DNA of 64,000 nucleotides from Escherichia coli (GCF_024502345.1 NZ_JALDNN010000001.1), one strand, 5' to 3'. Counted from the stretch's first letter, positions 7,839 through 24,173 are shown. The notes: generated from the sequence alone by a model not told the origin. Numbers and translations: made by a program.

Positions 7839-8055
7839 AATTTAACCTTCATTTGATGTTGAATTGAACATATCAAAATCAGGCAATTACACAAATATAT
7901 GTACAGGCTCGCACCTGGGCTTGCCTGACTGACCGCAGGCCGGCGACGACAAGGTGGAAAAGTTCGGCGTGTGGCTCTGGCGGCAACGATCCCGCGAAGG
8001 GCGGACGGTGCTTGAGCTGTTGAACGTAAGCATGCGGGCAAACCATCTTGCGCGA

Positions 8056-8430
8056 CTATGCCGGATGCCACCTATGCGGCAGCAGCTCTGCAATCTCACT
8101 AGCTCGCTGCGTCGGCAACCGTCTCAGCACATCCTTGAGATAGGCATACGGATCGTGCCCATTATTACGGGCCGACTGGATCAAACTCATGATCGCAGCA
8201 GCGCGCTTGAGCATGCGAACCCGCGCCGAGCATTTGAGAAGGCAACGGGATGAACGCTGGCTGGATAGCCGTGGTTTTCTGGGTAAGCAGGCGAATCCAT
8301 TTGTGGACGAGGTTGGCATTGAGGCTGTAGCCCAAGGCGATGTTTGCGATGGAGGCACCGGGTTCAGAACACTCCTGAATGACCTGGGCCTTGAAAGATT
8401 TGCTGTAGGTACGGCGCTGAGGGCGCATGG
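8056..8430 (-). pseudogene. IS66-family remnant: TnpA-like N-terminus fused to TnpC C-terminal tail, internally deleted
   Basis: MRPQRRTYSKSFKAQVIQECSEPGASIANIALGYSLNANLVHKWI (TnpA-like) and ...SLIQSARNNGHDPYAYLKDVLRRLPTQRASEIAELLPHRWHPA (IS66 transposase C-terminal signature) in adjacent frames. Confidence 0.6.
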
Positions 8431-8935
8431 AAAATCCGCTTGATGGGCCATGGCCTTCGGCGGCGGTGTCGGGAAGGTGTGTTGGCCGGACGGATACTGT
8501 TGAACTACGTTGTCTGGGGCAACGGAAGTGTTTCGGCCCGACTCTGGAACGCGATCCGCAGCGACGACTGGGCAATTCCGCACGTTGGCCTGAGCAGCCT
8601 CGGGGAAATCGTCGTCTGGGCGCGCCCAGACGAGTTTCCGCCAAGGAACATGCAGACAAGCAAGGGGCTGCGGGCACTCGGCTACAACGTGAGGATCGGT
8701 GTTTGATCGAGGCGCCTGTGGCACACGCAGGCTGAGGAGCCAGGCGCTGTCCATTGCCTGATCAGGCCGCCCCCCTGTGCCTTGCCTGAGCAGTTGACCT
8801 GCATCAATGGGGCGGGAGAACGCTGCACATTGCACTCTTGACTCCTGAAGTTTTTCATGGTAAGCCTAATATTACAAAGTATTGCAAGGATTTCCTTGGC
8901 CGGAACCGCAAAGCGACGCGATTGGAGAGGGTGAG

Positions 8936-9217
8936 ATGAAAGCGCACCTACAGGTGATTTTCACGCTCGATGAATTGGCTGCGTACTTGAAAGTCGGCAA
9001 GCGGACGCTTTATCGGCTCGCCGCACACGGGGAAATTCCGGCTTTCAAGGTGGGCGGGACGTGGCGGCTTCGTCAAAGTGAAATCGATCAGTGCATCAAT
9101 GATCAGACCCGAGCCGGAGCAAAGAAGGAGGTGATGCGCAAGCGTGAACAGCAGAAGTCATCCGAGCAGCCCGTGTCGCCTGGGCGCACTGCCCGTCGCA
9201 GCAGGCAAAGGGCTTGA
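8936..9217 (+). CDS. Helix-turn-helix DNA-binding protein (excisionase/MerR-like), LHR orf1
   Basis: MKAHLQVIFTLDELAAYLKVGKRTLYRLAAHGEIPAFKVGGTWRLRQSEIDQCI, an excisionase-type HTH; ATG at 8936. Confidence 0.75.
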   Translation: MKAHLQVIFTLDELAAYLKVGKRTLYRLAAHGEIPAFKVGGTWRLRQSEIDQCINDQTRAGAKKEVMRKREQQKSSEQPVSPGRTARRSRQRA

Positions 9218-9251
9218 GTAACTCGTTTTCCAATTTTTCTGGAGGTATGAC

Positions 9252-9821
9252 ATGGACATCGATTTCAAGAAGTTGGCTCCCTGGAACTGGTTCAAGAACG
9301 AGCAGCAAGAGCAGCAGACCGCCTCTTCCCTGCCGGTGCAGCGCAATGACCTGCCAGCGGCGAGCGGGCCAGTCAGCCCGATCCTGCAACTGCGTCGGGA
9401 AATCGACCGGCTGTTCGATGACGCATTCCGGGGCTTCGGTTTTCCGGCGTTGAACATGCCGCAGTGGCCATCCGATTGGTCGGGCATGCTGAAGCCGGCC
9501 CTGGACATCCAGGAAACCGACAAGCAGTACAAGATTGCCCTGGAAGTGCCCGGTGTCGAGGAGAAGGACATCCAGATCACCCTCGACAACGACGTGCTGA
9601 TGGTGCGTGGCGAGAAGCGCCAGGAACAGGAGAAGAAGGAAGGTGGCTTCCACCGTGTGGAGCGCTCCTACGGCAGCTTTCAGCGTGCCTTGAACCTGCC
9701 TGACGACGCCAACCAGGATTCGATCAAGGCATCGTTCAAGAACGGGGTGCTCACGGTCACGATCGACAAGCGCGAGGTCAGCGCGCCGAAGCAGGGACGC
9801 TCGATCCCGATCAACGGCTGA
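9252..9821 (+). CDS. hsp20: Small heat shock protein, Hsp20/alpha-crystallin family (LHR sHsp20)
   Basis: 189 aa with alpha-crystallin domain signature (...ALEVPGVEEKDIQITLDNDVLMVRGEKRQEQ...GVLTVTIDK); GGAGG RBS upstream. Confidence 0.9.
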   Translation: MDIDFKKLAPWNWFKNEQQEQQTASSLPVQRNDLPAASGPVSPILQLRREIDRLFDDAFRGFGFPALNMPQWPSDWSGMLKPALDIQETDKQYKIALEVPGVEEKDIQITLDNDVLMVRGEKRQEQEKKEGGFHRVERSYGSFQRALNLPDDANQDSIKASFKNGVLTVTIDKREVSAPKQGRSIPING

Positions 9822-9926
9822 CGTCGCCGGCTCGTTCGTCACAAGAAAAACCCGTCCCGAGACGAGGTGTCGCGGCTCGCGATGCCTCGTCGCCTCAACC
9901 TTTTCAACCTTCTAAGGAGCATCAGC

Positions 9927-12809
9927 ATGGCCAGAAAACAATGCCAGGTCTGCGGCCAACCCGCCACCGTGCGGGTGGAAGCCAATCTCAACGGTCGTCA
10001 CAGCACCATGCTGTTGTGCGACGACCATTACCGGCAATTAGTGCGCCAGCAAAAGCGCACCGTTTCGCCGCTGGAAGCCTTGTTCGGTTCGCGCAGCGGC
10101 CTGTTCGAGGACTTCCTCGGCAGTGACTTCTTCCGCATCGGCGACGACGCGACGCCAGTTGCCGCCGATACCGATGACGTGGTCGATGCCTCGTTTGGCG
10201 AGCCCGCCGCCGCAGGTTCGGGTGCGCCGCGCCGTCGCGGCAGTGGGCTGGCCAGCCGCATCAGCGAACAGTCGGAAGCCTTGTTGCAGGAGGCCGCCAA
10301 ACACGCTGCCGAATTTGGCCGCTCCGAGGTGGATACCGAACATCTGCTGCTGGCGCTGGCCGACAGCGACGTGGTCAAGACCATCCTGGGTCAGTTCAAG
10401 ATCAAGGTCGATGACCTCAAGCGGCAGATCGAGTCTGAGGCCAAGCGCGGGGACAAGCCCTTCGAGGGCGAGATCGGCGTGTCGCCGCGCGTGAAGGATG
10501 CGCTCAGCCGCGCCTTCGTGGCCTCCAATGAACTCGGTCATTCTTATGTCGGTCCAGAGCATTTCCTGATTGGTCTGGCCGAGGAAGGCGAAGGGCTGGC
10601 CGCCAACCTGCTGCGCCGCTACGGCCTGACGCCGCAGGCGCTGCGCCAACAGGTCAGCAAGGTGGTCGGCAAGGGCGCCGAGGATGGACGCGCTGAGACG
10701 CCGACCAACACGCCCGAGCTGGATAAATACTCGCGCGACCTCACCAAGATGGCGCGCGACGGCAAGCTCGACCCGGTGATCGGCCGCGCGCAGGAGATCG
10801 AAACCACCATCGAGGTGCTGGCCCGGCGCAAGAAGAACAACCCGGTGCTGATCGGCGAGCCGGGTGTGGGCAAGACCGCCATCGTCGAAGGGCTGGCGCA
10901 GCGCATGGTGGCGGGTGAAGTGCCCGAGACCTTGCGCGACAAGCGCCTGGTGGAACTCAACATCAACGCCATGGTGGCCGGCGCCAAATATCGCGGCGAG
11001 TTCGAGGAGCGCGTGCAGAAGGTGCTGAAGGAGGTGACCGAGCACCAGGGCGAGCTGATTTTGTTCATCGACGAGGTGCACACCATCGTCGGTGCCGGCC
11101 AGGGCGGTGGCGAAGGCGGGCTGGACGTGGCCAACGTATTCAAACCGATGATGGCGCGCGGTGAACTCAACCTGATCGGCGCCACGACGCTGAACGAGTA
11201 CCAGAAATACATCGAGAAGGATGCCGCACTGGAGCGGCGCTTCCAGCCGGTGACGGTGCCCGAGCCGACGGTGGCCCAGACCATCATGATTCTGCGCGGC
11301 CTGCGCGACACCTTCGAGGCGCACCACAAGGTCAGCATCTCCGAGGACGCGATCATCGCGGCGGCCGAGTTGTCCGACCGCTACATCACGGCGCGCTTCC
11401 TGCCGGACAAGGCGATCGACCTGCTCGACCAGGCGGCCGCGCGCGTGAAGCTGTCGGCCACGGCCCGGCCGGTGGCCGTGCAGGAGCTGGAGTCCGAACT
11501 GCACCAGCTGCGGCGTGAACAGGATTACGTGGCCGCGCGCAAGCAGTACGACCAGGCCGCCGAGCTCGGCAAGCGCATCGAAGCCAAGGAGACCGAGCTC
11601 AAGAAGCTCGTCGAGAACTGGGAGCGGGAGCGGGCCTCCGGCAGTGCAGAGGTCAAGGCGGAACACGTGGCGCAGATCGTCTCGCGCCTGACCGGCATCC
11701 CTGTCAACGAGTTGACGGTGGAAGAGCGCGAAAAGCTGCTGCACTTGGAACAACGGCTGCACGAGCGCCTGGTGGGACAAGACGAGGCGGTCCGTGCCGT
11801 GGCCGATGCCGTGCGGCTGTCCCGCGCCGGCCTGCGCGAAGGCAGCAAACCGGTGGCTACCTTCCTGTTTCTGGGCCCGACCGGGGTGGGCAAGACCGAG
11901 CTCGCCAAGGCATTGGCCGAATCGATCTACGGCGATGAGCACGCCCTGTTGCGCATCGACATGTCGGAATATGGCGAACGCCATACCGTGGCGCGGCTGG
12001 TGGGCGCGCCTCCGGGCTATGTCGGTTACGACGAAGGCGGTCAGCTCACCGAGAAGGTGCGGCGCAAGCCCTACAGCGTGCTGCTGCTCGACGAGATCGA
12101 GAAGGCACACCCTGACGTCTACAACATCCTGCTGCAAGTGTTCGACGACGGTCGCCTCACCGACGGCAAGGGCCGGGTGGTGGATTTCACCAACACCATC
12201 ATCATCGCCACGTCCAACCTGGGTTCGGACATCATCCAGCGACGGCTGAAGGCGCGTGGGGCGGCCGACGAGGAGTACGAAAAGACCAAGGCCGAGGTCA
12301 TGGACGTGCTGCGCGGCCACTTCCGGCCCGAGTTCCTCAACCGCATCGACGAGATCATCGTCTTCCATGCGCTGGGTAAGGAGGAGATCCGCCACATCGT
12401 CGGCCTGCAGCTCGATCGCGTGGCGCGCAGCGCCGCCAGCCAGGGCGTGACGCTCACTTTCGATCAGACGCTGATCGACCATTTCGCGGAAGAAGGCTAC
12501 AAACCCGAGTTCGGTGCGCGTGAACTCAAGCGCCTGATCCGCAGCGAGCTGGAAACTGCGCTGGCGCGCGAGATGCTCGGTGGCGGCATCGGCAAGGGCG
12601 ATCACGCCAGCGCACGCTGGGACGACAAGGCCGAACGCGTGGTGTTCGAACGCAAAGAGCCACTGCAGACCCCGGCCGAGCCGGAGCAGCCGGATGCCGC
12701 GAAGGCGACCGAGCCGGAGCAGCCGGATGCCGCGAAGGCGACCGAGACGCCGCACGGCGACGCTGGCAAAGGCTCGCGCAAGAAGAAGTCGGCGAGCGAC
12801 GCATCTTGA
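9927..12809 (+). CDS. clpK: ClpK/ClpG-type AAA+ disaggregase (Clp ATPase with N-terminal zinc-ribbon-like CxxC..CxxH)
   Basis: [36 protein letters not shown]-terminus; two AAA+ modules (GEPGVGKT..., [15 protein letters not shown]...); AAGGAG RBS before ATG 9927. ORF-track start at 9867 is a less likely upstream start. Confidence 0.92.
12678..12743 (+). repeat. Perfect 2 x 33-bp tandem duplication inside the clpK 3' region (encodes [11 protein letters not shown] twice)
   Basis: GAGCCGGAGCAGCCGGATGCCGCGAAGGCGACC occurs twice in direct succession, in frame. Confidence 0.9.
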
Positions 12810-13000
12810 TGGCGGGCGAGGCTGCCGTGTCCGACCCCAAGGGCCTGGCATGGGCAGCCTCCCTGGCCTCGATCGCGGTGGCGTTCGTGGCCGCGGGTCA
12901 CGCGGTCGTCTACAAGCGTGATCCGCGGTCGACCACGCCGTGGGGGCTGCTCATCAGCGGCGGCACTGCCCTCCCGCTCGCTGGCCATCCGTTTGCGTGA
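12809..13000 (+). CDS. Small hypothetical hydrophobic protein between clpK and the ftsH-like gene (speculative)
   Basis: 63-codon ORF starting at ATG overlapping the clpK stop; hydrophobic; may be a GC-rich frame artifact. Confidence 0.3.
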   Translation: MAGEAAVSDPKGLAWAASLASIAVAFVAAGHAVVYKRDPRSTTPWGLLISGGTALPLAGHPFA

Positions 13001-13060
13001 CGGTGCGGCCCGTCTGTTCACCTGATCCTCTGGCAACTCGACTTTCGAGGAACACAGCCC

Positions 13061-14788
13061 ATGGAAAAAAAGAATCAATGGAATACCGGCTACTGGATCG
13101 TTGCCCTCCTGCTGTTGTTGAGTTTGCAGAGCTACTGGCAGACGGCGAAAACCGTCGAGCCGGTGCCCTACAGCGAGTTCGAGAAGGCGCTGGCCGAGGG
13201 GCGCGTGGCCGAAGTGCTGGTGTCGGATCGTACGGTGACCGGGCGCCTGAAGTCGCCGGACAGCCGGGGCAAGACGACGATCGTGGCAACGAGGGTCGAA
13301 CCCGATCTTGCCGATCGCCTGTCGAAGTACGACGTGCCCTATGCCCGCGTGTTGGAGAGCACCTGGCTGCGCGATGTGCTGTCGTGGATCCTGCCAGCGG
13401 TAGCCTTCTTTGGCGTCTGGTTCTTCCTGTTCCGCCGCTTCGCCGAGAAGCAGGGCATGGGCGGGTTTCTCAACATCGGTAAGAGCCGCGCCAAGGTGTT
13501 CGTGGAAAAGAACACCGGTGTGACGTTCGCCGATGTCGCGGGGGGGGATGAGGCCAAGGCGGAGCTGGTCGAGATCGTCGATTTCCTGAAGAATCCGCAG
13601 GACTATGGCCGTCTCGGGGCGCGCATTCCCAAGGGCGTGTTGCTGGTCGGCCCACCGGGCACCGGCAAGACATTGCTGGCCAAGGCTGTTGTCGGCGAGG
13701 CGGCGGTGCCCTTCTTCTCCATCTCCGGATCAGAGTTTGTCGAGATGTTCGTCGGCGTGGGTGCGGGCCGCACGCGCGGCGTCGGCGGCCACGACGAGAG
13801 CGAGCAGACCCTCAACCAACTGCTCACGGAGATGGACGGCTTCGACAGCTCGGTCGGGCTGATCATCCTCGCCGCCACCAACCGCCCCGAAATCCTCGAC
13901 CAGGCTCTGCTGCGTGCCGGCCGCTTCGACCGCCAGGTGCTGGTGGACCGGCCCGACAAGAAGGGGCGGCTGGACATCCTGAAGGTTCATGTCAAGAAGG
14001 TGACGCTGGCCCAGGATGTAGACCTCGAACAGGTAGCAGCACTGACCACGGGCTTTTCCGGCGCGGACCTCGCCAATAGGGTCAACAAGGCGGCGCTGGC
14101 GGCGAGGAGACGCCGTGCGTCCGCCGTGGAATTGCAGGACTTCACCGCGACCATCGAGCGCATCGTGGCGGGCCTGGAAAAGAAGAGCCGCGTGCTCAAT
14201 CCCAAGGAGCGGGAAACCGTGGCCCATCACGAGATGGGCCATGCGCTGGTGGCGCTGGCGCTGCCCGAAACCGACCCCGTACACAAGATCTCGATCATCC
14301 CGCGCGGCATCGGCGCGCTGGGCTACACCTTGCAGCGCCCCACCGAAGACCGCTTCCTGATGACGCGTACCGATCTCGAGCACAAGATCGCCGTACTGCT
14401 GGGCGGGCGTGCCGCCGAAAAGCTGGTGTTCGGCGAGTTGTCTACCGGGGCGGCGGACGATCTGGCGCGAGCCACCGACATCGCCCGCGACATGATCACC
14501 CGCTTTGGCATGGACGAGGGCCTGGGCTACATCGCCTTCGAGGCGCAGCGGCCCCGCTTTCTCGATACACCGGAACTGGCCCACGGCGGTTGCCGGGTGG
14601 CCGAATCGACCCAGGCGCGCATCGATCAGGCTATCCGCGACATCGTGATGGGCGTGTTCGAGCGCGCCTACCGGATTCTCGACATCTACCGCGCGGTGCT
14701 GGAGCGCTGCGCGCGCGAGCTGCTGGCGCGGGAAGCGCTCGACGAAAGCGATATCCGTCAATTGACTCAAGGACTTGTTCGGAACTGA
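13061..14788 (+). CDS. FtsH-like membrane AAA+ zinc metalloprotease paralog; Walker A and HEMGH present, Walker B segment apparently missing
   Basis: Two N-terminal TM segments, GPPGTGKT Walker A, HEMGH zinc site; [28 protein letters not shown] lacks the ~27-29 residues (including IIFIDEID) present in E. coli FtsH at that position. Confidence 0.85.
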
Positions 14789-14875
14789 AAACAGTAGTAG
14801 GTGCCATTCAGAGTAAACCGACGGCTCTGTTCAGTGCGTCATCCAATTCGTCGGCATTGTTCAAGGAGAACCGAT

Positions 14876-15334
14876 ATGTCTGCATTGACTCCGTGGGACC
14901 CCTTCCGGGAACTGGATGAATTGCAAAACCGCCTGGCGACGATGTTCGGACGAATACCCCAGCGACAGGGCGCCCGTACCGGCAACGAAGCCATGACCAC
15001 GGCGGACTGGGCACCAATGGCGGACATCAGCGAGGATGAGAACGCATTCCTCCTCAAGCTGGATCTGCCGGAGGTCCCCAAGGATGCCGTGCGCGTCAGC
15101 GCGGAAAACGGTGTGCTCACCATCAGCGGCGAGCGCAAACTGGAAAAAGAGGAGCAGGGCAAGAAGTTCCACCGCATCGAACGTGCGTATGGCCGCTTTG
15201 TGCGCAGCTTTGTCTTGCCTGACAACGTTGATCCGACCAAGGTGACGGCTTCCATGAAAGACGGCGTACTGGAAGTGCGGCTTGTCAAGGCCGAGCAAGC
15301 CAAACCGAAACAGATTGAAATCTCAGTCAACTAA
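14876..15334 (+). CDS. Small heat shock protein, Hsp20 family (second LHR sHsp)
   Basis: MSALTPWDPFRELDELQNRL...GVLTISGERKLEKEEQGKKFHRIERAYGRF...; AAGGAG RBS before ATG 14876. Confidence 0.9.
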   Translation: MSALTPWDPFRELDELQNRLATMFGRIPQRQGARTGNEAMTTADWAPMADISEDENAFLLKLDLPEVPKDAVRVSAENGVLTISGERKLEKEEQGKKFHRIERAYGRFVRSFVLPDNVDPTKVTASMKDGVLEVRLVKAEQAKPKQIEISVN

Positions 15335-15356
15335 CTTCAATCAGGAGCCCAAGATC

Positions 15357-16271
15357 ATGAATATCAAACAGCCACAATACACCTTCTCCGCACTTGCCCT
15401 GGCGGTCGTCGTCGGACTGAGCGGACCGGCTCTGGCCCAATCGGCGGCAGGTTCTAGCCCAGGTGCTGCAGCCCCCTCTGCCGCATCCAAGGCGGCACAG
15501 CCACAAGTAGATGACAAGGCCGCCCGGGAAGCCGATAAAAAGCGTGCCGAGCTCACTCAAGACGCCATCACGGCGCTCACCAAGACCCAGGAGGCTTTGA
15601 CCCTCCTTGATGCAAAGAAGACCAAGGAGGCGCTTGCTGCGCTGGAACTGGCCAGCGGAAAGCTGGAACTGGTATTGGCACGTGACGCCAAACTTGCTTT
15701 GGCGCCGGTCGATGTACGCGTCATCACCCACGATATCCACGCCAACGTGGAATCGGTAAAGAAAGCGGTCAAGTTGTCTCGGGAGTTGTTGGGTGATGGC
15801 GAGGTGCAAAAGGCCCGGCCCATCGTTGCCAATCTGGCCAGCGAAATCGTAATCCAAACCGACAACCTTCCGATGGCAACGTACCCGGCAGCGATCAAGT
15901 CGGCCGCACGGCTCATCGACAGCGGCAAGATCGACAACGCCAAAGCGGAACTCGCCCGAGCACTGAACACGCTGGTGGTGACCTCGGTCGCCTTTCCTCT
16001 GCCCGTGCTACGGGCCGAAGCCGCGATGGCAAAAGCTGAAAAGCTGGCCGAGACCGACAGGCGCGATGCCAAGCAGAACGAGGAGCTCAGCACCTTGCTG
16101 TCGTCCGTGCGCACGGAGATCGAGATGGCGCAGATCCTGGGTTATGGCAAGAAGGCGGACTTCAAACCCATTTTCGATCAGGTGAAGTCCATTGAGCAAA
16201 AGTCGGCTGGTGGCAAAAGCGGCAAGGGATGGTTCGACGAGTTGAAGACGCGCATCCAAAAGCTGTTTTGA
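15357..16271 (+). CDS. yfdX: YfdX-family protein 1, with N-terminal signal peptide
   Basis: MNIKQPQYTFSALALAVVVGLSGPALAQ signal peptide then YfdX-like helical repeats; ATG at 15357 after AGGAG. Confidence 0.85.
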   Translation: MNIKQPQYTFSALALAVVVGLSGPALAQSAAGSSPGAAAPSAASKAAQPQVDDKAAREADKKRAELTQDAITALTKTQEALTLLDAKKTKEALAALELASGKLELVLARDAKLALAPVDVRVITHDIHANVESVKKAVKLSRELLGDGEVQKARPIVANLASEIVIQTDNLPMATYPAAIKSAARLIDSGKIDNAKAELARALNTLVVTSVAFPLPVLRAEAAMAKAEKLAETDRRDAKQNEELSTLLSSVRTEIEMAQILGYGKKADFKPIFDQVKSIEQKSAGGKSGKGWFDELKTRIQKLF

Positions 16272-16373
16272 GGTGATGAAGGGGCTGACTGCTCTGTCGG
16301 TCAGTCTCGCGATGTTCGCATTCAGCCCCAACAGATTCGCCTATTTTCACTATCTCATACGAGGCATATCACC

Positions 16374-17261
16374 ATGAATGAGCAAACACCGAATCCCAAT
16401 GCGACGAACGAAGGAATAAACGAACAAGCCGCGGTAAGCAGCCTTCCTGTCAGTCCAGAGTCCAAGCCTGAAGTCGTCACGGAGGTACAGCCTGAGGTTC
16501 AGAAAGAAACGGACTCGCAGGCGGCAGACAAACGTAAACAAGTCCTCGATGAGGCAGTCTCGGCCTTGTCGCTGACCAAATCAGCGCTGGCCGCACTTGA
16601 CGGCAAGGACACTGCACGCGCATTGGCAACGCTGGCCGAAGTGACGGGAAAGCTGGAGCTGATCGTCGCGCGCGAACCCACGCTCGCCCTGGCCGGCGTT
16701 GATGTGCGCACCATCGTGCACGACTTGTTCGCCAACACGGAAACCATTGAGGCGATGACCGACGAGGCGCTGGATGCCCTCAAACATGGCGAGGTGCAAC
16801 AGGCTCGCCACGTGCTGGCTTTGCTGGCCAGTGAAATCGTGATCACGGTCACCAACATCCCTTTGGCGTCCTATCCCGCAGCCGTGAAGGCAGTCGTGCC
16901 GCTGATCGATCAGGGCAAGATCGAAGAAGCCAAAGCCGCGCTGCAGTCAGCGCTCAGCACGCTGGTCGAGGAGCGCAGCGTGCTTCCGCTGCCCGTCCTG
17001 CGTGCGAAGCTGCTCCTGAAGCGCGCCGAGCCTCTGGTAGAAGATGGTCAGCGCAGCGAAGCATCCAATGAGCGCCTGGAGACATTGTTGAACGAAGCCC
17101 GGCAGCAGTTGGAAATGGCAGAACTGCTGGGCTATGGAAAAAGGAAGGACTTTGAGCCCCTGTACGCTGAACTCAAGAAAATCAAGGAAAAGACGGGAGG
17201 GGGAGGCTTCGGAAAAGGCTGGCTCGATGAAGTCAAGGCAAAACTGTCCAGGTTGTTCTGA
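16374..17261 (+). CDS. yfdX: YfdX-family protein 2; no signal peptide in this frame
   Basis: Paralogous to the preceding gene over the C-terminal ~230 aa; N-terminus MNEQTPNPNATNEG is hydrophilic. Confidence 0.8.
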   Translation: MNEQTPNPNATNEGINEQAAVSSLPVSPESKPEVVTEVQPEVQKETDSQAADKRKQVLDEAVSALSLTKSALAALDGKDTARALATLAEVTGKLELIVAREPTLALAGVDVRTIVHDLFANTETIEAMTDEALDALKHGEVQQARHVLALLASEIVITVTNIPLASYPAAVKAVVPLIDQGKIEEAKAALQSALSTLVEERSVLPLPVLRAKLLLKRAEPLVEDGQRSEASNERLETLLNEARQQLEMAELLGYGKRKDFEPLYAELKKIKEKTGGGGFGKGWLDEVKAKLSRLF

Positions 17262-17269
17262 AACCGCTG

Positions 17270-17296
17270 GAGAGGGGGCGCATAGTGCCCCCTCTC
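17270..17296 (+). terminator. Rho-independent terminator after yfdX2
   Basis: Perfect 10-bp GC-rich inverted repeat GAGAGGGGGC / GCCCCCTCTC with 7-nt loop, followed by a T-rich tract. Confidence 0.7.
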
Positions 17297-17350
17297 TTGT
17301 CCCATGAGTGTTTGATTTTTTATTTTGTATAGATCTTTAGGAGATATTGC

Positions 17351-17962
17351 ATGAACACAGACACCATCACCGATTCCAGTGCGGATGACCCCACCAAAGC
17401 ACTGTGTTCGCTTAGCCAAAATTGGTGGCTTTTTGTGCTGCGCGGTGTCTTGGCATTGATTTTTGCAGCCCTCGCGTTCTGGATGCCACAATCGGCTCTG
17501 TTGGCCATGACCATCATGTTCGGCGCATTTTCCTTGGTCAATGGCGCGTTCAACTTGTTTGCAGCGGTGCGCCATATCCAGAAAAAAGAGCGCTGGGGCT
17601 GGTTGTTGTTCAGCGGCATTGTCGGCATACTTACGGGCGTCGTCGTCCTGGTTGCTCCTTGGGTCGCCACGATAGTCTTGGCTTCTTTTTTATGGGCTAG
17701 CGTGGGCTTCTGGGCGATTTTCACCGGTGTGCTGGAGATATCTGCCGCCGTTCGGCTGCGTCGGGAAATCAAGGGTGAAATCTGGCTTGCCCTCAGTGGA
17801 CTGCTCTCGATTATCCTTGGTGCTATCGTCTTGTGGATATTTTTTACCCGTCCGGTCGAGTCATTCGTGGCCGCAGGCTGGCTGTTGGGTTTCCATGCGG
17901 CAGTCTATGGCGTCACGCTTTTGTTCTTGAGTTGGAGTCTTCGCAAAACGCGCCTGGGGTAA
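17351..17962 (+). CDS. hdeD: HdeD-like acid-resistance membrane protein
   Basis: 203 aa with multiple TM segments, HdeD-family-like. Confidence 0.8.
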   Translation: MNTDTITDSSADDPTKALCSLSQNWWLFVLRGVLALIFAALAFWMPQSALLAMTIMFGAFSLVNGAFNLFAAVRHIQKKERWGWLLFSGIVGILTGVVVLVAPWVATIVLASFLWASVGFWAIFTGVLEISAAVRLRREIKGEIWLALSGLLSIILGAIVLWIFFTRPVESFVAAGWLLGFHAAVYGVTLLFLSWSLRKTRLG

Positions 17963-18041
17963 GAGCGTGCCAAACCAAAATCTATGGATATGAGCATCCT
18001 CGATTCATGCCTCCATAGAAATGACATCGAAGGAGTCATAC

Positions 18042-19187
18042 ATGCAGATACAATATAGCTATCGAGCTATCGACAAAGAGTTTCATGAACCTTGGCAGAG
18101 AGCTTTGGGAAATGTGATCGAGCACGCCCTCAAGCCATTGCTCGACAAACACACTAAAGATTCAGCGCGACTTCAAATCGTCCTTGATCGCGACAAGATC
18201 AAGCGGCAATTTCTGGCCAGTGGCTATATGCACCTGCCCGGCAAAAAGATTGTCAGCGTTACTGCATCACATGACGAGCTGACGCCCCTCGCGCAGATGC
18301 TCGCACAGTCGTTGTTCCGTCAGGCCAAGAAGCATTTTGACCGACTGCATGCTCAGGATCAAATCAAGCGCAAAGCACGACGCGAGCGCTTGCGCGAGCT
18401 CAAGGTGCGGATTGCCGCAAAACCCGCATCAGCCGCCCATGAGGCCGAGGTGACCCGAATGCCTCTACTGTCGAAACTTGAGGCTGTCGCAAGGCGTGAG
18501 CTGGCTTATCTGCGGGCCGTCGGCGATTTACCGCGCGATTATCCGACGCTGCGCGACGTGGTGGATGAAGCGATTGTCCGAGCTAAGGTGGAATGGCAAT
18601 CCGTGCCGGGGGAAAAAGAGGCTTACACCGGTCTTTTGAAGCATCTGTTCGCCGTCCTGGATAACGAAGTGGCAAGCAGCCGGCAATTTGGCGAATTCGT
18701 TTCTCTGGACGCGCCGGTCGAACCGGATGCCCAAGACGTGGCCGAGGCCATGGTGGAAGAGGAAATCTTCGAATTTTATCAGCACGATGACACACTCAAG
18801 CTGGCCGATATTTTCGCTGGCAGTCAGCATCCCGATGTCGCAACGATCGCGGAACAGGAGGAGCTGATTGATCGGTCGAGCGAGTTCGCTTTTGCATTTG
18901 ACCTGCTGAAGGACATGCCGCGTTTGTGGCGGCGCATTTTTCTGCTTATCCGTGTGGACGGGCTGAATGCCAGCAGCGTCTCTGAAATCCTGCTGATTCC
19001 TAGTAAGGAAGATGCTGTCCAAAGGTGGCTCATGCAGGCCGAAGCATTCATCGCTGCTCATCTGGAAGAGGCCGGAGTAAGCAAAAACGGGAACGATTGG
19101 CTCCAAGGCGTTGATTGGCCGGCATTGTCTGTGACCCGAAGCGAGGCAGCCTCACTGTGGTCCAAGGAGGCGAACCATGAAGAATGA
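18042..19187 (+). CDS. Hypothetical protein, unknown function (LHR orf11 position)
   Basis: ORF 18021..19187; ATG 18042 preceded by GGAG; no recognisable motifs; GC content lower than neighbouring LHR genes. Confidence 0.6.
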   Translation: MQIQYSYRAIDKEFHEPWQRALGNVIEHALKPLLDKHTKDSARLQIVLDRDKIKRQFLASGYMHLPGKKIVSVTASHDELTPLAQMLAQSLFRQAKKHFDRLHAQDQIKRKARRERLRELKVRIAAKPASAAHEAEVTRMPLLSKLEAVARRELAYLRAVGDLPRDYPTLRDVVDEAIVRAKVEWQSVPGEKEAYTGLLKHLFAVLDNEVASSRQFGEFVSLDAPVEPDAQDVAEAMVEEEIFEFYQHDDTLKLADIFAGSQHPDVATIAEQEELIDRSSEFAFAFDLLKDMPRLWRRIFLLIRVDGLNASSVSEILLIPSKEDAVQRWLMQAEAFIAAHLEEAGVSKNGNDWLQGVDWPALSVTRSEAASLWSKEANHEE

Positions 19188-19617
19188 TCTTCACCTCGTC
19201 TGCCCGCATTGCCAGTCCATCAACCGCGTACCGACTGCGAAGCTATCGGAACATCCCAACTGTGGCCGCTGCCAGCAGCCCTTGTTCACGGGCGAGCCCA
19301 TCGAGTTGACCACGGCGACGTTCTCGCGCCACGTGGAGCGCAGCGATCTGCCGCTGCTGGTCGATTTCTGGGCGCCATGGTGCGGGCCGTGCAAGATGAT
19401 GGCGCCACAGTTCCAGCAAGCGGCGCACCAGCTCGAACCGACGATCCGGCTGGCGAAGGTGAATACCGAGGCTGAGCCCCACCTGGCCGCGCAGTTCGGT
19501 ATCCGCAGCATCCCGACGCTCGCCCTGTTCCAGGGTGGGCGGGAGATCGCCCGTCAGGCCGGCGTGATGGGCGCGCAGGACATCGTGCGCTGGACGTCGA
19601 CGCAAGTGGGACGCTGA
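19177..19617 (+). CDS. trx: Thioredoxin, TrxC-like, with N-terminal zinc-finger extension
   Basis: CPHCQ...CGRCQ N-terminal motif plus WCGPC active site. Confidence 0.9.
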   Translation: MKNDLHLVCPHCQSINRVPTAKLSEHPNCGRCQQPLFTGEPIELTTATFSRHVERSDLPLLVDFWAPWCGPCKMMAPQFQQAAHQLEPTIRLAKVNTEAEPHLAAQFGIRSIPTLALFQGGREIARQAGVMGAQDIVRWTSTQVGR

Positions 19618-19620
19618 CCG

Positions 19621-21336
19621 ATGCAGGGCTTGCTCGGCACTACGCTAATCCTGCTGGCGGCTTGCAGCCTGGCGGCGATGGCGACGGCGGCGTTCAGAGT
19701 GCCCGCCTTGCTGGGGTATCTCTCTGTCGGCGTTGTACTGGGCCCCTCAGTCATCGGCGTGATCGCGCCGGGGGAGACGCTGAGCTTTCTGTCCGAGCTG
19801 GGCGTGGCGCTGCTGTTGTTCATGGTCGGACTGGAATTCTCCCTCGGAGACTTCTGGCTCGCCCGCAGGACGGTGCTGATGGCGGGCGCTCTGCAGATGA
19901 TCGCCGTGGCCCCGCCGCTGATCCTGCTATTGATGTGGCTGGGGCAGCCCGGCCAGAGCGCCGCGCTGCTCGGCACTGCGGCGGCCATGTCGTCCACGGC
20001 GCTGGTCAGCCGACAACTGGCCGACCAAGGCGAGCTCACCACCCGCCACGGACGCAGTGCCATCGCCGTGCTGGTCTTTCAGGACCTGGCCAGCGTGCCC
20101 CTGCTGGCCTTGCTGGCGATCTGGGCGCGCGGCGACTCGCCGAAGATCGAGCATGTGCTGCTCGAAGTATTCGGTGTGCTGCTGCTGTTCGCGGCAGCGG
20201 CCCTCGCCTCGCGCCGTCTGTTGCATGGCCTGCTGGGCTGGGTGGCGCGGCGGGGCCACGAGGAATCGTTCGTGCTCGTCTCCTTGTGCGTGGTGGTGGC
20301 CGCCGCCGCCGCTGCGCACGCGGTCGGCGTATCTGCCGCCCTGGGGGCCTTCCTCGCCGGGATGGTGCTGGGCGAGAGCGACTTCCGGCACCACATGGAA
20401 AGCCACCTCAGGCCGTTTCGCGATGTGTTGTCGGGCGTGTTCTTCGTGACCATCGGCCTGCAACTGGACGCAGCACAGATTCTTTCGGCACCGCTGGCGG
20501 TGCTGGCGTGGCTGGTGGTGCTGGTACCGGTCAAGATCCTGCTCAATACACTGGCCTTGCGGGCGACGCGCCTGTCCGCCCTCGATGCCTGGCGCACGGG
20601 CATAGCGTTGGGGCACGGCGGCGAGTTCGCCCTGCTGTTGTTGGGCACGGTCTTGCAGCAGCATCTGATCCCCGCGACCGTCGTCCAACCCATGCTGGTC
20701 GCGCTGGTGCTCAGCATGGCCCTGGCACCGCTACTGATCCGCCATCACGATGTACTTGCCCGGTTCTTGAGCCGCACCGGCGGCGTCATTCAGCCACCCC
20801 AGGCTGAAGAAGTCGAGATCGCCGCGCAGACGACGCGATATCGAGACCATGTCATCATTTGCGGCGCGGGCGAGCTTGGCCTGACAGTCAGCGAGATTCT
20901 TCGCCACGCCGGCGTGGCGCATCTGCTGCTGGAGGCGGACGCGCAGAAGGTCGAGGCCGCGCGTGCCGCCGGCGCGCCGGTGTTCCATGCCGATGCCAGT
21001 CGGCCCGATACCTTGCTGGCTGCCGGCTTGACGCATGCACACTTGGTGGTGCTGACGTTCGCCCATGCCCAGCAAGCGTTGCGCATCGCCCAGGCGATTG
21101 CCGAGCACCGTCCGGCGCTGACCTTGTGGGTGTCATGCAGAAGTACGACCGCGGCCGATGCATTTCGCGCCATGCCCAACGTGCGCGTGTATCAGCAATC
21201 CTTTGCCGCAGCTATTGGGCTGGCGGAACAGGTGATGTCGACGCTTGGCATGTCGACCGAGCTGATTGAAGGACACATCAGCGCAATGCGCCGCCGTCTC
21301 GACAGCAGCCGTTTTCCAGGGAGTTCATCGTCATGA
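19621..21336 (+). CDS. kefB: KefB-like monovalent cation:proton antiporter (CPA2 family) with C-terminal TrkA-N/KTN domain
   Basis: Multi-TM N-terminal domain; C-terminal VIICGAGELG Rossmann-type KTN motif. Confidence 0.85.
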   Translation: MQGLLGTTLILLAACSLAAMATAAFRVPALLGYLSVGVVLGPSVIGVIAPGETLSFLSELGVALLLFMVGLEFSLGDFWLARRTVLMAGALQMIAVAPPLILLLMWLGQPGQSAALLGTAAAMSSTALVSRQLADQGELTTRHGRSAIAVLVFQDLASVPLLALLAIWARGDSPKIEHVLLEVFGVLLLFAAAALASRRLLHGLLGWVARRGHEESFVLVSLCVVVAAAAAAHAVGVSAALGAFLAGMVLGESDFRHHMESHLRPFRDVLSGVFFVTIGLQLDAAQILSAPLAVLAWLVVLVPVKILLNTLALRATRLSALDAWRTGIALGHGGEFALLLLGTVLQQHLIPATVVQPMLVALVLSMALAPLLIRHHDVLARFLSRTGGVIQPPQAEEVEIAAQTTRYRDHVIICGAGELGLTVSEILRHAGVAHLLLEADAQKVEAARAAGAPVFHADASRPDTLLAAGLTHAHLVVLTFAHAQQALRIAQAIAEHRPALTLWVSCRSTTAADAFRAMPNVRVYQQSFAAAIGLAEQVMSTLGMSTELIEGHISAMRRRLDSSRFPGSSSS

Positions 21337-21830
21337 AATCAACACGCCTTAACCCATTTCAGGTCTTACGTGACCAATTGGCCATCATGAGTTTTTACGA
21401 GCGCTTCGAGCAGGTCGTCGCGCTCGTGCTGTCGGCGGTGATCGCCGTCATCATCGTGGTGTCGCTGTTCCAGCTCATCTCCATCGTCTTCACGCTGCTG
21501 GTTCTAGATGCCTTCAATCCCCTGGACCACGAGGTATTCCAGAGCGTGTTCGGCATGATCATGACGCTCTTGATCGCGATGGAGTTCAAGCATTCCATCG
21601 TGCGCGTGGCGCTGCGTCGGGACAGCATCATCCAGGTCAAGACGGTGGTCCTGATCGCGCTGATCGCACTCTCCCGCAAGTTCGTGATCCTCGACTCCAA
21701 CGCGAGCCCCGCAAAGATAGCCGCGCTGGCTAGCGCCACGCTGGCTCTGGGTGCGACCTACTGGCTGCTGCGCAAGCGCGGCGACCGCGCCGCCGAGACC
21801 TCTGAGCATGACCCGTCATCATCCCAGTGA
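21333..21830 (+). CDS. psiE: PsiE-family membrane protein (phosphate-starvation-inducible E-like)
   Basis: 165 aa, four hydrophobic segments, PsiE-like. Confidence 0.7.
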   Translation: MKSTRLNPFQVLRDQLAIMSFYERFEQVVALVLSAVIAVIIVVSLFQLISIVFTLLVLDAFNPLDHEVFQSVFGMIMTLLIAMEFKHSIVRVALRRDSIIQVKTVVLIALIALSRKFVILDSNASPAKIAALASATLALGATYWLLRKRGDRAAETSEHDPSSSQ

Positions 21831-22773
21831 TCCGCGCACGGCGCTCTTGCAACACCGCTGGCTCAACCGCCTGCAGACCGGGCTGTTGGTCCTGACCCTG
21901 GTCGGGATCGCAGCCGCAGCAGGGAGACTGCCGTTTGGGGAAGGCTGCCTGTGGCTCGCGCTGTTTGCCATTGCAGGTGCGTTGCTGCTGGAACCGGTAG
22001 CCGCGTCGGCGCTGAGCTTGCGCCTGTACCGCGTACGGGCCTTGCACCCGCAAGAAGCCCACAAGATGTGGGCCCTATTGCGCGAGCTGCCCGCCCGTGC
22101 CGGTTTGCCCGCCACGCCGGTGCCGCACTATGTGCCCAGTGCCGTCGTCAACGCCTTCGCCACCGGATCGAAGCAGGAGGCATCGATCGCCCTCACCGAT
22201 GGCCTGCTGCGCAGCCTGAGCCCACGCGAGCTGGCGGGTGTGCTCGTGCACGAGGTCGCGCACATCGCTAATGAGGATCTGCGTGTCATGGGGCTGGCGG
22301 ATTCCGACAGTCGCCTCACGAGCCTACTGGCCCTTATGGGACAGATCGCGATCCAGCTCAGCCTGCCCGCGCAGCTGGTTGGCGCGGCGGAGGTCTATTG
22401 GCCTGGTCTATTGTTATTGGCCGCATCGCCCCAGCTGGCCCTGCTCGCACAGCTCGGCTTGTCTCGCGTGCGTGAGTTCGACGCTGACCGCCTTGCGGCG
22501 GAACTGACTGGCGACCCGCAGGGGCTGGCGTCCGTGCTGGCAAAAATCGAGCGGGTCAGCCGCTCCTGGCGTGCCTGGCTATGGCCGGGATGGGGCAATC
22601 CCGAGCACTCCTGCTTGCGTACGCGTCCGGCAACGCAAGAGCGCATTGCACGCCTGCTGACGTTGGCGCCTGGGCCAGCATCAGCGTTGCCACTCCGCGC
22701 GCCCCATTTTTTGCCGGAATCCGCTTTGGCGACGCGCCCACCGAGCTGGCGCCCGAGCGGGCTGTGGCGCTGA
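21808..22773 (+). CDS. Zinc metalloprotease, M48/HtpX-like
   Basis: HEVAHIANED zinc-binding motif with N-terminal TM segments; start placed at MTRHHPSDPR (ATG 21808), overlapping the psiE end. Confidence 0.75.
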   Translation: MTRHHPSDPRTALLQHRWLNRLQTGLLVLTLVGIAAAAGRLPFGEGCLWLALFAIAGALLLEPVAASALSLRLYRVRALHPQEAHKMWALLRELPARAGLPATPVPHYVPSAVVNAFATGSKQEASIALTDGLLRSLSPRELAGVLVHEVAHIANEDLRVMGLADSDSRLTSLLALMGQIAIQLSLPAQLVGAAEVYWPGLLLLAASPQLALLAQLGLSRVREFDADRLAAELTGDPQGLASVLAKIERVSRSWRAWLWPGWGNPEHSCLRTRPATQERIARLLTLAPGPASALPLRAPHFLPESALATRPPSWRPSGLWR

Positions 22774-22797
22774 TTGCCCATCAACAGGAGACGTCTC

Positions 22798-23949
22798 ATG
22801 GCCTATCTCGACCCGTACCAACGCCCCGCGCCGGACCGCTTCGTCCGGCGCGGGCTCTTCATCACCGCCTGCATTGCCGCGCTCATGCTGCTGTGGCAGT
22901 TTCTGCCCGCCATCGAGGCATGGTTCAGTCCGCGCGAGGCAGCAGAACGCACCGTGATGGCGCGTGGCGATCTGGCGGCGGACGAGAAAACCACCATCGA
23001 ACTGTTCGAAAAATCGCGCGCCTCGGTGGTCTACATCACCACCGCGCAATTAGTACGCGATGTCTGGACGCGCAACGTGTTCTCCGTGCCGCGCGGCACT
23101 GGCTCGGGCTTCATCTGGGACGACGCCGGCCACGTCGTCACCAACTTCCACGTCATCCAGGGCGCGTCCGAAGCCACCGTCAAACTGGCCGACGGCCGCG
23201 ACTACCAGGCCGCGCTGGTGGGGATGAGCCCCGCGCACGACATCGCCGTGCTCAAGATCGGCGTCGGTTTCAAGCGCCCGCCGGCCGTGCCGGTCGGCAC
23301 CAGTGCCGACCTCAAGGTGGGTCAGAAGGTGTTCGCTATCGGCAACCCCTTCGGCCTGGACTGGACGCTCACCACAGGTATCGTCTCCGCGCTCGACCGC
23401 TCGTTGCCGGGAGAAGCGGGCGGCCCGGCCATCGATCACCTGATCCAGACCGACGCCGCCATCAACCCCGGCAATTCCGGTGGCCCGCTGCTCGATTCGG
23501 CTGGGCGGCTGATCGGAATCAATACCGCCATCTACAGTCCGTCTGGCGCCTCGGCCGGCATAGGCTTTGCGGTGCCGGTCGATACCGTCATGCGCGTGGT
23601 GCCGCAACTCATAAAGACCGGCAAGTACATCCGTCCGGCACTGGGCATCGAGGTGGATGAGCAGATCAACGCGCGTCTGCAGGCGCTGACCGGCAGTAAG
23701 GGCGTATTCGTATTGCGCGTGACGCCGGGCTCGGCGGCGCACAGGGCCGGGCTCGTCGGCGTCGAGGTCACCGCAGGCGGCATCGTGCCCGGCGATCGCG
23801 TTATCAGCATCGACGGTATCGCCGTCGACGACGTCACCACATTACAGGCCCGGCTAGACGACAAGAACGTTGGAGATGTTGTGGTCTTGTTAGTGGAGCG
23901 GGCCGGCAAGACTCGCGAGATGCTTGTGGAACTACAACCGGGAGTTTGA
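22798..23949 (+). CDS. degP: DegP/HtrA-family periplasmic serine protease with one PDZ domain
   Basis: Trypsin-like core (VVTNFHVI...DIAVLKI...GNSGGPL) followed by a PDZ-like C-terminus; ATG 22798 after CAGGAG. Confidence 0.88.
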   Translation: MAYLDPYQRPAPDRFVRRGLFITACIAALMLLWQFLPAIEAWFSPREAAERTVMARGDLAADEKTTIELFEKSRASVVYITTAQLVRDVWTRNVFSVPRGTGSGFIWDDAGHVVTNFHVIQGASEATVKLADGRDYQAALVGMSPAHDIAVLKIGVGFKRPPAVPVGTSADLKVGQKVFAIGNPFGLDWTLTTGIVSALDRSLPGEAGGPAIDHLIQTDAAINPGNSGGPLLDSAGRLIGINTAIYSPSGASAGIGFAVPVDTVMRVVPQLIKTGKYIRPALGIEVDEQINARLQALTGSKGVFVLRVTPGSAAHRAGLVGVEVTAGGIVPGDRVISIDGIAVDDVTTLQARLDDKNVGDVVVLLVERAGKTREMLVELQPGV

Positions 23950-24173
23950 TGGAAAGTGGGTCATGGATCTGCACAGCGAAGCAGCCAAGCGACTTCAGCC
24001 TTGCGCCGAACTACGAGCCCTAGCTAGGGATGGTCTGAAGTAGCCCTGTATTTCCGGCTGACTTCAGCCACTGCTGATTTTGAAAGCGGTGAACCGATCA
24101 AAAACGATCGGATCACCCGCTCATTTCGGTGCTTTCAGCCGTCGCGAGCACCTTGCGACGGCCATTTTCCGCA

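Follow-up and report, generated by a model that had tools for sequence, protein, structure and literature searches.

A signal peptide-like short open reading frame upstream of yfdX2 in the Escherichia coli locus of heat resistance is probably coincidental

The window analyzed here, a stretch of 64,000 nucleotides of Escherichia coli DNA (GCF_024502345.1, NZ_JALDNN010000001.1), represents the E. coli locus of heat resistance (LHR, or tLST). A short open reading frame (ORF) of 33 codons that ends on the start codon of yfdX2 is, with a probability of about 0.85, there by coincidence within the transcribed yfdX1-yfdX2 spacer and not as a displaced signal peptide. A previous reading of the same DNA, the sequence-only reading, had offered two explanations for this ORF, a frameshifted native N-terminus of YfdX2 or coincidence. 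The former is refuted by the lack of any indel in ten other LHR copies and by a clade of leaderless relatives sharing 43 to 60% identity with YfdX2, and the latter is supported at the probability given above. Since YfdX2 belongs to an old subfamily of proteins without a signal peptide, the short ORF is best regarded as something other than its frameshifted start. The evidence comprises the geometry of the ORF, the absence of indels, the leaderless clade and its synteny, a noncoding pattern of substitutions, and a predicted hairpin in the spacer.

According to this explanation, yfdX2 would be translated from ATG 16374 by means of the GAGG Shine-Dalgarno sequence 9 nucleotides (nt) upstream. The product would have 295 residues, with the first 32 or so being polar, acidic, and predicted to be disordered and the YfdX fold following them. 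The YfdX2 subfamily would have been kept in tandem behind a YfdX1-type gene encoding a signal peptide and mostly ahead of an HdeD/DUF308 gene, and the hairpin formed by positions 16281 to 16292 and 16318 to 16329 would be a real element of the spacer that acts on the polycistronic mRNA.

Gene organization of the yfdX1-yfdX2 region

Many E. coli chromosomes with annotated yfdX1 and yfdX2 match the region from 15900 to 16900 (about 1 kb) at 100% identity, and 121 E. coli records with at least 99% identity across the yfdX1-yfdX2 stretch carry the same annotation. In an identical RefSeq copy, the genes are arranged as a frameshifted ftsH, hsp20-GI, yfdX1, yfdX2, hdeD-GI, and orf11, and the window has in common with E. 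coli LHR copies the order sHSP-GI, yfdX1, yfdX2, hdeD-GI, orf11, and trx. The yfdX2 gene of these copies is the same as that of the window, without any difference, and the sole discrepancy is the periplasmic label that the literature attaches to its product. The order yfdX1-yfdX2-hdeD is the same in loci L008 and L010 to L018, subject for L008 to the observation on its upstream gene given below. The features of the region are listed in Table 1.

Table 1. Features of the yfdX1-yfdX2 region, with positions counted from the first nucleotide of the window
Feature	Position	Strand	Description
yfdX1 (pscA)	15357..16271	+	304 aa, YfdX family; RefSeq annotation of identical copy
yfdX1-yfdX2 intercistronic spacer	16272..16373	+	102 nt; ungapped alignments; length invariant across LHR variants
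Short ORF, 33 codons	16276..16377	+	Probably a chance ORF, neither gene nor relic N-terminus
Inverted repeat, 5' arm	16281..16292	+	GGGGCTGACTGC; 12 nt, GC-rich
Inverted repeat, 3' arm	16318..16329	+	GCATTCAGCCCC
GAGG Shine-Dalgarno sequence of yfdX2	16361..16364	+	9 nt 5' of ATG 16374; invariant in all variants
yfdX2 (pscB)	16374..17261	+	295 aa, leaderless YfdX-family protein
hdeD-GI (DUF308 membrane protein)	17351..17962	+	Third gene of the conserved yfdX1-yfdX2-hdeD module

The stop codon of yfdX1 is TGA 16269 to 16271 and the start codon of yfdX2 is ATG 16374 to 16376. The two genes share a reading frame, and in this haplotype the 34 codons that separate them are all sense codons. In the yfdX2 frame, no start codon occurs from the yfdX1 stop to ATG 16374, and the translation, GDEGADCSVGQSRDVRIQPQQIRLFSLSHTRHIT, is nonhydrophobic. 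The open shared frame from 16269 to 16376 is probably accidental, and a TAG at 16332 to 16334 lies in it in six of the eight spacer haplotypes. A fusion of YfdX1 and YfdX2 by read-through was considered and ruled out because of this in-frame TAG in most haplotypes.

The short ORF and its resemblance to a signal peptide

The 33-codon ORF MKGLTALSVSLAMFAFSPNRFAYFHYLIRGISP opens at ATG 16276 (start, MKGLTALSVSLAMFAFS...) and stops at TGA 16375 to 16377, which overlaps the yfdX2 ATG in the motif ATGA, exactly as the sequence-only reading had described. It starts 5 nt past the yfdX1 stop and thus spans the spacer almost exactly, and a GTG at 16273 would lengthen it by one codon. The ORF lies one base off the register of yfdX2, and it would take a -1 shift to pass into the frame of that gene. 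A GAGG lies only 2 nt ahead of ATG 16276, versus 9 nt ahead of ATG 16374.

Signal peptides were assessed by the best 10-residue Kyte-Doolittle window in the N-terminus, together with the net charge before it and the absence of charged residues within it, a rule that is crude and not equivalent to SignalP. YfdX1, whose N-terminus carries a Sec-type signal peptide (MNIKQPQYTFSALALAVVVGLSGPALA/Q), scored 2.9, the short ORF 2.13, and YfdX2 1.02. The leader of YfdX1 noted earlier thus stands, and YfdX1GI is described as SignalP 5.0 positive in PMC8067161, where a predicted leader is reported for YfdX1GI only. It was likewise correct that YfdX2 as called has no signal peptide, since its N-terminus (MNEQTPNPNATNEG...) is net negative and falls short by the hydrophobicity rule. 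The signal-peptide look of the short ORF held up in part. Its n- and h-regions are present, with K2 followed by the uncharged stretch GLTALSVSLAMFAFS (peptide segment, MKGLTALSVSLAMFAFSPNR). However, no small-x-small (AXA-type) cleavage site was found past the hydrophobic stretch, with Pro directly after 'AFS', and the hydrophobic core is not conserved among LHR copies. The remainder of the ORF reads NRFAYFHYLIRGISP up to the stop, out of frame with yfdX2.

The same thresholds were matched by 8 of the 358 ATG-initiated ORFs of at least 30 codons in the window (about 2%) and by 4 of the 185 with 30 to 60 codons, and 0.3% of the ORFs in shuffled sequence reached them. At a rate of about 2%, several signal peptide-like ORFs are expected per 64-kb window. 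The resemblance is therefore real but cheap, and the short ORF is conspicuous only by its position beside a leaderless paralog. Its hydrophobic codons are explained by the hairpin region being read in one frame. The ORF was annotated as a gene in no copy examined, and its peptide was not found in a collection of 15 billion proteins. Comparison of the spacer and the short-ORF peptide with signal-peptide regions of YfdX proteins gave similarity no greater than that of shuffled controls, and no slippery heptamer of the form X XXY YYZ was detected in the ORF frame within 16276 to 16377.

Comparison of the spacer among LHR copies

The copies compared included six annotated variants, from E. coli LHR2 plasmids, from plasmids of Klebsiella pneumoniae, Acinetobacter baumannii, and Brucella anthropi, and from a chromosome of E. 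coli with an identical copy, plus five metagenome or metagenome-assembled genome (MAG) loci (L010 to L014) with YfdX2 proteins 88 to 89% identical to that of the window. Local nucleotide identity among the LHR variants goes down to about 85 to 93%. The distance from the yfdX1 stop to the yfdX2 start is 102 nt in every LHR copy examined (ten others and the window), and all 11 aligned copies are ungapped, with no indel in the spacer. The nucleotide alignment proposed in the sequence-only reading, in search of an indel between 16320 and 16374, gave none. Nearly all of the 120 nearest homologs of YfdX2 (88 to 100% identity) have 295 residues, MNEQT opens every full sequence read among them, and no longer, leader-bearing YfdX2 was found among the homologs. 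The constant length of the ungapped spacer, the nearly constant length of the proteins, and their MNEQT starts together indicate that there is no indel to repair. The other LHR copies share the frame arrangement of the window, and their YfdX2 is predicted to be leaderless and, by extension, probably cytoplasmic.

The substitutions within the short ORF among the haplotypes comprise eight amino acid changes, one nonsense change, and three silent changes, a ratio typical of unselected sequence. The amino acid changes include L4P and L7P/L7R, which fall inside the putative h-region, as well as F16V and S17G, and a hydrophobic core is not maintained among the LHR haplotypes. Codon 26 is changed from TAT to the stop codon TAA in Brucella and in one Klebsiella copy. 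ATG 16276 is invariant among the variants. Variable sites make up 12 of the 102 spacer positions (12%), compared with 23 to 31% of the third codon positions of the flanking genes, which indicates that something constrains the spacer.

Features of the YfdX2 protein

YfdX2, read from ATG 16374 as (M)NEQTPNPNATNEGINEQAAVSSLPVSPESKPEVVTEVQPEVQK, and YfdX1 are paralogs sharing 48% identity. Both belong to Pfam family PF10938, with E values of 5.8e-34 for YfdX1 and 5.6e-39 for YfdX2, the latter at 134 bits over residues 64 to 201 and above the gathering score (cutoff, 26.6). An NCBIfam scan was negative for YfdX1, YfdX2, and the short-ORF peptide, which implies that the RefSeq name 'YfdX2' was not derived from NCBIfam HMMs. 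The AlphaFold model of YfdX2 has a pLDDT of 82.6 and a pTM of 0.72. In this model, residues 1 to 24 have a pLDDT below 50, residues 1 to 32 are without secondary structure, and the first helix begins at residue 33, with no hydrophobic helix.

A fold search with the model returned YfdX crystal structures as all of the top nine PDB matches (3DZA, 6UXT, 6A09, and 6A02), with E values of about 1e-7 against the core YfdX structures, a probability of 1.00, and TM scores of 0.55 to 0.63 on the target. Searches of PDB sequences with YfdX2 by phmmer and by profile gave no match, the similarity being too low, and the connection to the solved YfdX structures came from the fold comparison alone. The core-genome YfdX proteins of E. 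coli, Salmonella Typhi (STY3178), and K. pneumoniae (PDB 3DZA, 6A02/6A09, and 6UXT) share PF10938 with YfdX2 and are described in the cited papers as having a predicted signal peptide and being likely periplasmic, with solved chains of 160 to 180 residues. Unlike them, YfdX2 has 295 residues, a C-terminal helical extension of about 90 residues, and a disordered acidic N-terminus without a leader. YfdX2 is reported to be highly expressed (PMC8067161). According to PMC8407380, strains deleted for pscB (yfdX2) are less resistant to heat and chlorine, and resistance returns when pscB is supplied on a plasmid, which indicates that yfdX2 is functional.

A leaderless YfdX2 clade and its synteny

A HMMER scan of 1.84 billion representatives revealed that most YfdX relatives of about 300 residues carry a signal peptide. 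The nearest relative of YfdX2 outside the LHR (P0123, 52% identity) has none, and a search from it recovered a clade (P0271 to P0292 and P0336) sharing 43 to 60% identity with YfdX2, with about 23 clustered relatives. The named members are from a Marinobacter sp. and Magnetococcales MAGs, and the others are metagenome or assembly sequences. Their N-termini (MSDEKETQ..., MNDENKT..., and MMSDQPQTT..., of the pattern M-[SN]-[DE]) are polar and acidic and lack a hydrophobic core. Each member of the leaderless clade scores better against YfdX2 than against YfdX1, whereas relatives with a signal peptide score equally well or better against YfdX1. In the alignment, the leaderless proteins are without the columns of the YfdX1-type h-region, and both types realign from ...PEPKS..VQPxV on. 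P0123 groups with YfdX2 as its sister in a neighbor-joining tree, which is star-like and was used for that pairing only. The remaining leaderless proteins, which are scattered, may represent independent losses or miscalled starts.

The gene order around these homologs resembles that of the LHR. In L015/L016 (a JGI metagenome contig and the NCBI assembly encoding the Marinobacter-named protein) and in L017/L018, a small heat shock protein (sHsp) gene is followed by a yfdX with a signal peptide, a spacer, a leaderless yfdX2-like gene, and a DUF308/hdeD gene. The Magnetococcales MAGs (L019/L020) have the same sHsp gene, signal-peptide yfdX, spacer, and leaderless yfdX2-like gene, with no DUF308 gene after them. 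The 2.4-kb contig L007 contains only a signal-peptide/leaderless pair and a short partial gene. Its upstream gene product shares 50% identity with YfdX1 versus 52% with YfdX2, which leaves orthology ambiguous; for L007 it is a conserved architecture that is claimed and not strict one-to-one orthology with YfdX1. The spacers of these distant pairs are 76, 79, and 84 nt long in L015 to L020 and 204 nt long in L007, and no bridging or signal peptide-like ORF was found in them (four independent pairs). The leaderless YfdX2-type subfamily, as defined here, has a polar or acidic N-terminus, is closer to YfdX2 than to YfdX1, and is encoded directly 3' of a yfdX with a signal peptide. The leaderless form thus appears to be the native and ancient state of the YfdX2 subfamily.

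Two other loci are arranged differently. In L008 (1 to 850), a leaderless yfdX2-like gene (P0183) is followed by DUF308, orf11-like, PLD/cardiolipin synthase-type, and Na/H exchanger genes, and upstream of P0183 lie, as judged by eye, an apparent transposase remnant and an apparent truncated small heat shock gene, in place of a yfdX1-type gene. In L009 (102 to 2008), the order is reversed, with a leaderless yfdX (P0181) overlapping a yfdX of 336 residues, followed by ftsH and a clpG/clpK-like gene. Given L009, more than one event may have created or rearranged the pairing of yfdX genes.

A hairpin in the spacer

A repeat search identified the inverted repeat in the spacer (12 nt, 92% complementary, with a 25-nt loop), which is a perfect 12-bp stem in LHR2, where the 3' arm is GCAGTCGGCCCC. 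The hairpin (16281 to 16329) starts 10 nt past the yfdX1 stop and appears in minimum-free-energy folds of the spacer. The folding z score of the window spacer relative to shuffled sequences was -2.0 with flanks and -2.4 alone, and those of the distant spacers were -3.1 (L007), -2.4 (L015), and -5.8 (L017). Strong GC-rich hairpins are present at the corresponding place in nonhomologous spacers, at 1168 to 1234 in L007 and within the spacers of L015 (3422 to 3500) and L017 (3425 to 3500), in each case beginning no more than about 60 nt past the upstream stop, and L019 has only a weak one. Among the LHR copies, one pair changes from U-A to C-G via a C·A intermediate, and the 97% of cells that are paired was equalled by 105 of 500 shuffles and is not significant. 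An Rfam scan of the spacer matched no family, and what fell below the threshold was archaeal snoRNA noise. Around the yfdX2 start, the minimum-free-energy structure varies with the flanks included. A pairing of the bases after the yfdX1 stop with the Shine-Dalgarno sequence of yfdX2, seen in spacer-only folds of the window, L015, and L017, was rejected because the Shine-Dalgarno sequence pairs locally once flanks are added.

The hairpin is not a canonical terminator. No U-tract follows it in the window or in the distant spacers, the 25-nt loop and the location of the nearest T-run (16344 to 16347), 14 nt past the stem, do not fit an intrinsic terminator, and a scan of the + strand found no promoter-like or terminator-like site in the spacer. 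Intercistronic stem-loops, such as the REP-type and malE-malF-type mRNA stabilizers, set the relative expression of genes within operons. The spacer hairpin resembles these in being GC-rich, in lying just past the upstream stop without a U-tract, and in recurring in nonhomologous spacers. It shows no sequence relation to REP elements and no Rfam match. It is likely an mRNA-level element, which may serve as a barrier to degradation or processing or as a modulator of yfdX2 translation.

Alternative explanations for the short ORF

A recent indel that split a signal peptide off yfdX2, or an error in the sequencing of this copy with the same effect, would agree with an ORF with signal peptide-like n- and h-regions abutting the gene and with the signal peptides of most YfdX relatives of about 300 residues. 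However, the 10 other LHR variants are without a single indel, 121 E. coli records at least 99% identical carry the same annotation, no cleavage motif occurs in either frame, and the leaderless gene is functional. In addition, the TAG at 16332 to 16334 in six of the eight haplotypes means that only a very late frame junction could work, and this explanation has almost no probability. The same holds for a recoding event, in which a programmed -1 frameshift or read-through of the yfdX1 UGA would give a minor YfdX2 isoform with a signal peptide. The common frame of yfdX1 and yfdX2, with no stop between them in this haplotype, would permit the read-through, but this TAG would interrupt it in most haplotypes, the L007 spacer carries in-frame stops, and the ORF frame contains no slippery heptamer. 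The possibility that the ORF is the decayed coding region of an ancient leader lost from YfdX2 is slightly better placed and still very improbable. The two genes are paralogs (48% identity) from a family that ancestrally bears a signal peptide, but the spacers of relatives (76 to 204 nt) hold no such ORF, and no residual likeness to any signal-peptide coding region was detected. The leader was lost before the split from relatives at 43 to 60% identity, a divergence at which DNA free of selection is expected to have reached saturation, which makes the short ORF very unlikely to be a relic of it.

Translation of the short ORF is unlikely, though less so than any of the above. Ribosomes terminating on yfdX1 would reinitiate at AUG 16276, translate through the hairpin, and stop at the UGA over the yfdX2 AUG, which would couple yfdX2 to yfdX1, and the hydrophobic 33-residue peptide could act by itself. 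The ORF does span the spacer nearly exactly, starting 5 nt past the yfdX1 stop and ending in an ATGA overlap, and its ATG is invariant in a constrained spacer, so its translation would be compatible with the sequence. Against this, the peptide shows no conservation (L4P, L7P/R, and TAA at codon 26), its Shine-Dalgarno spacing is 2 nt and yfdX2 has a well-spaced one of its own, the four independent distant yfdX pairs have no counterpart, and the ORF has never been called as a gene. The overlap of the short-ORF UGA with the yfdX2 AUG is like that of trpE-trpD-type coupling, but the known cases of ATGA coupling involve a real, conserved upstream gene, whereas the peptide of the short ORF is unconserved and absent from related loci. 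Slightly less probable again is the specific form of this model in which the relay unwinds the 12-bp hairpin and hands ribosomes to yfdX2, with the peptide being a by-product or a small membrane factor of the LHR lineage. The coincidental reading frame remains the preferred explanation, and no change of annotation is needed for the short ORF.

Location of YfdX2 and implications

PMC8407380 and PMC8290217 call both proteins periplasmic and rename YfdX2 as PscB ('periplasmic stress chaperone', with YfdX1 as PscA). In the available parts of the two papers, the label rests on the predicted signal peptide of YfdX generally, and no localization experiment for YfdX2 was found described. From its sequence, we infer that YfdX2 is cytoplasmic. 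It is the 'periplasmic' label of YfdX2/PscB, and not the gene model, that finds no support in the sequence, and by sequence an export signal is present on YfdX1/PscA only. The heat resistance island matters to food safety and hospital hygiene, and the "cell-envelope module" of the literature consists of two periplasmic chaperones (PscA and PscB) and HdeD. Should YfdX2 indeed reside in the cytoplasm, the action of the module would extend to both sides of the inner membrane, and the mechanistic schemes now drawn for chlorine and heat protection would have to be revised.

Other features of the locus

The ftsH copy of the LHR (13061 to 14788) is an ORF of 575 residues here and is annotated as 'frameshifted' (a pseudogene) in the identical RefSeq copy, and on LHR2 plasmids ftsH is intact with 609 residues. 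PMC8407380 describes orf4 to orf6 as truncated and dysfunctional. The G+C content is 58 to 65% over roughly 8 to 24 kb (8001 to 24000), compared with 39 to 50% from 32 kb on, which fits the LHR as a horizontally acquired island. In L012 to L014, identity to the window is 97 to 100% across yfdX1, the spacer, and nt 1 to 150 of yfdX2 but only 85% across nt 451 to 888 of yfdX2, and LHR2 has the opposite pattern. This mosaic divergence (15357 to 17261 compared with L010 to L014, L002, and L003) suggests recombination breakpoints inside yfdX2.
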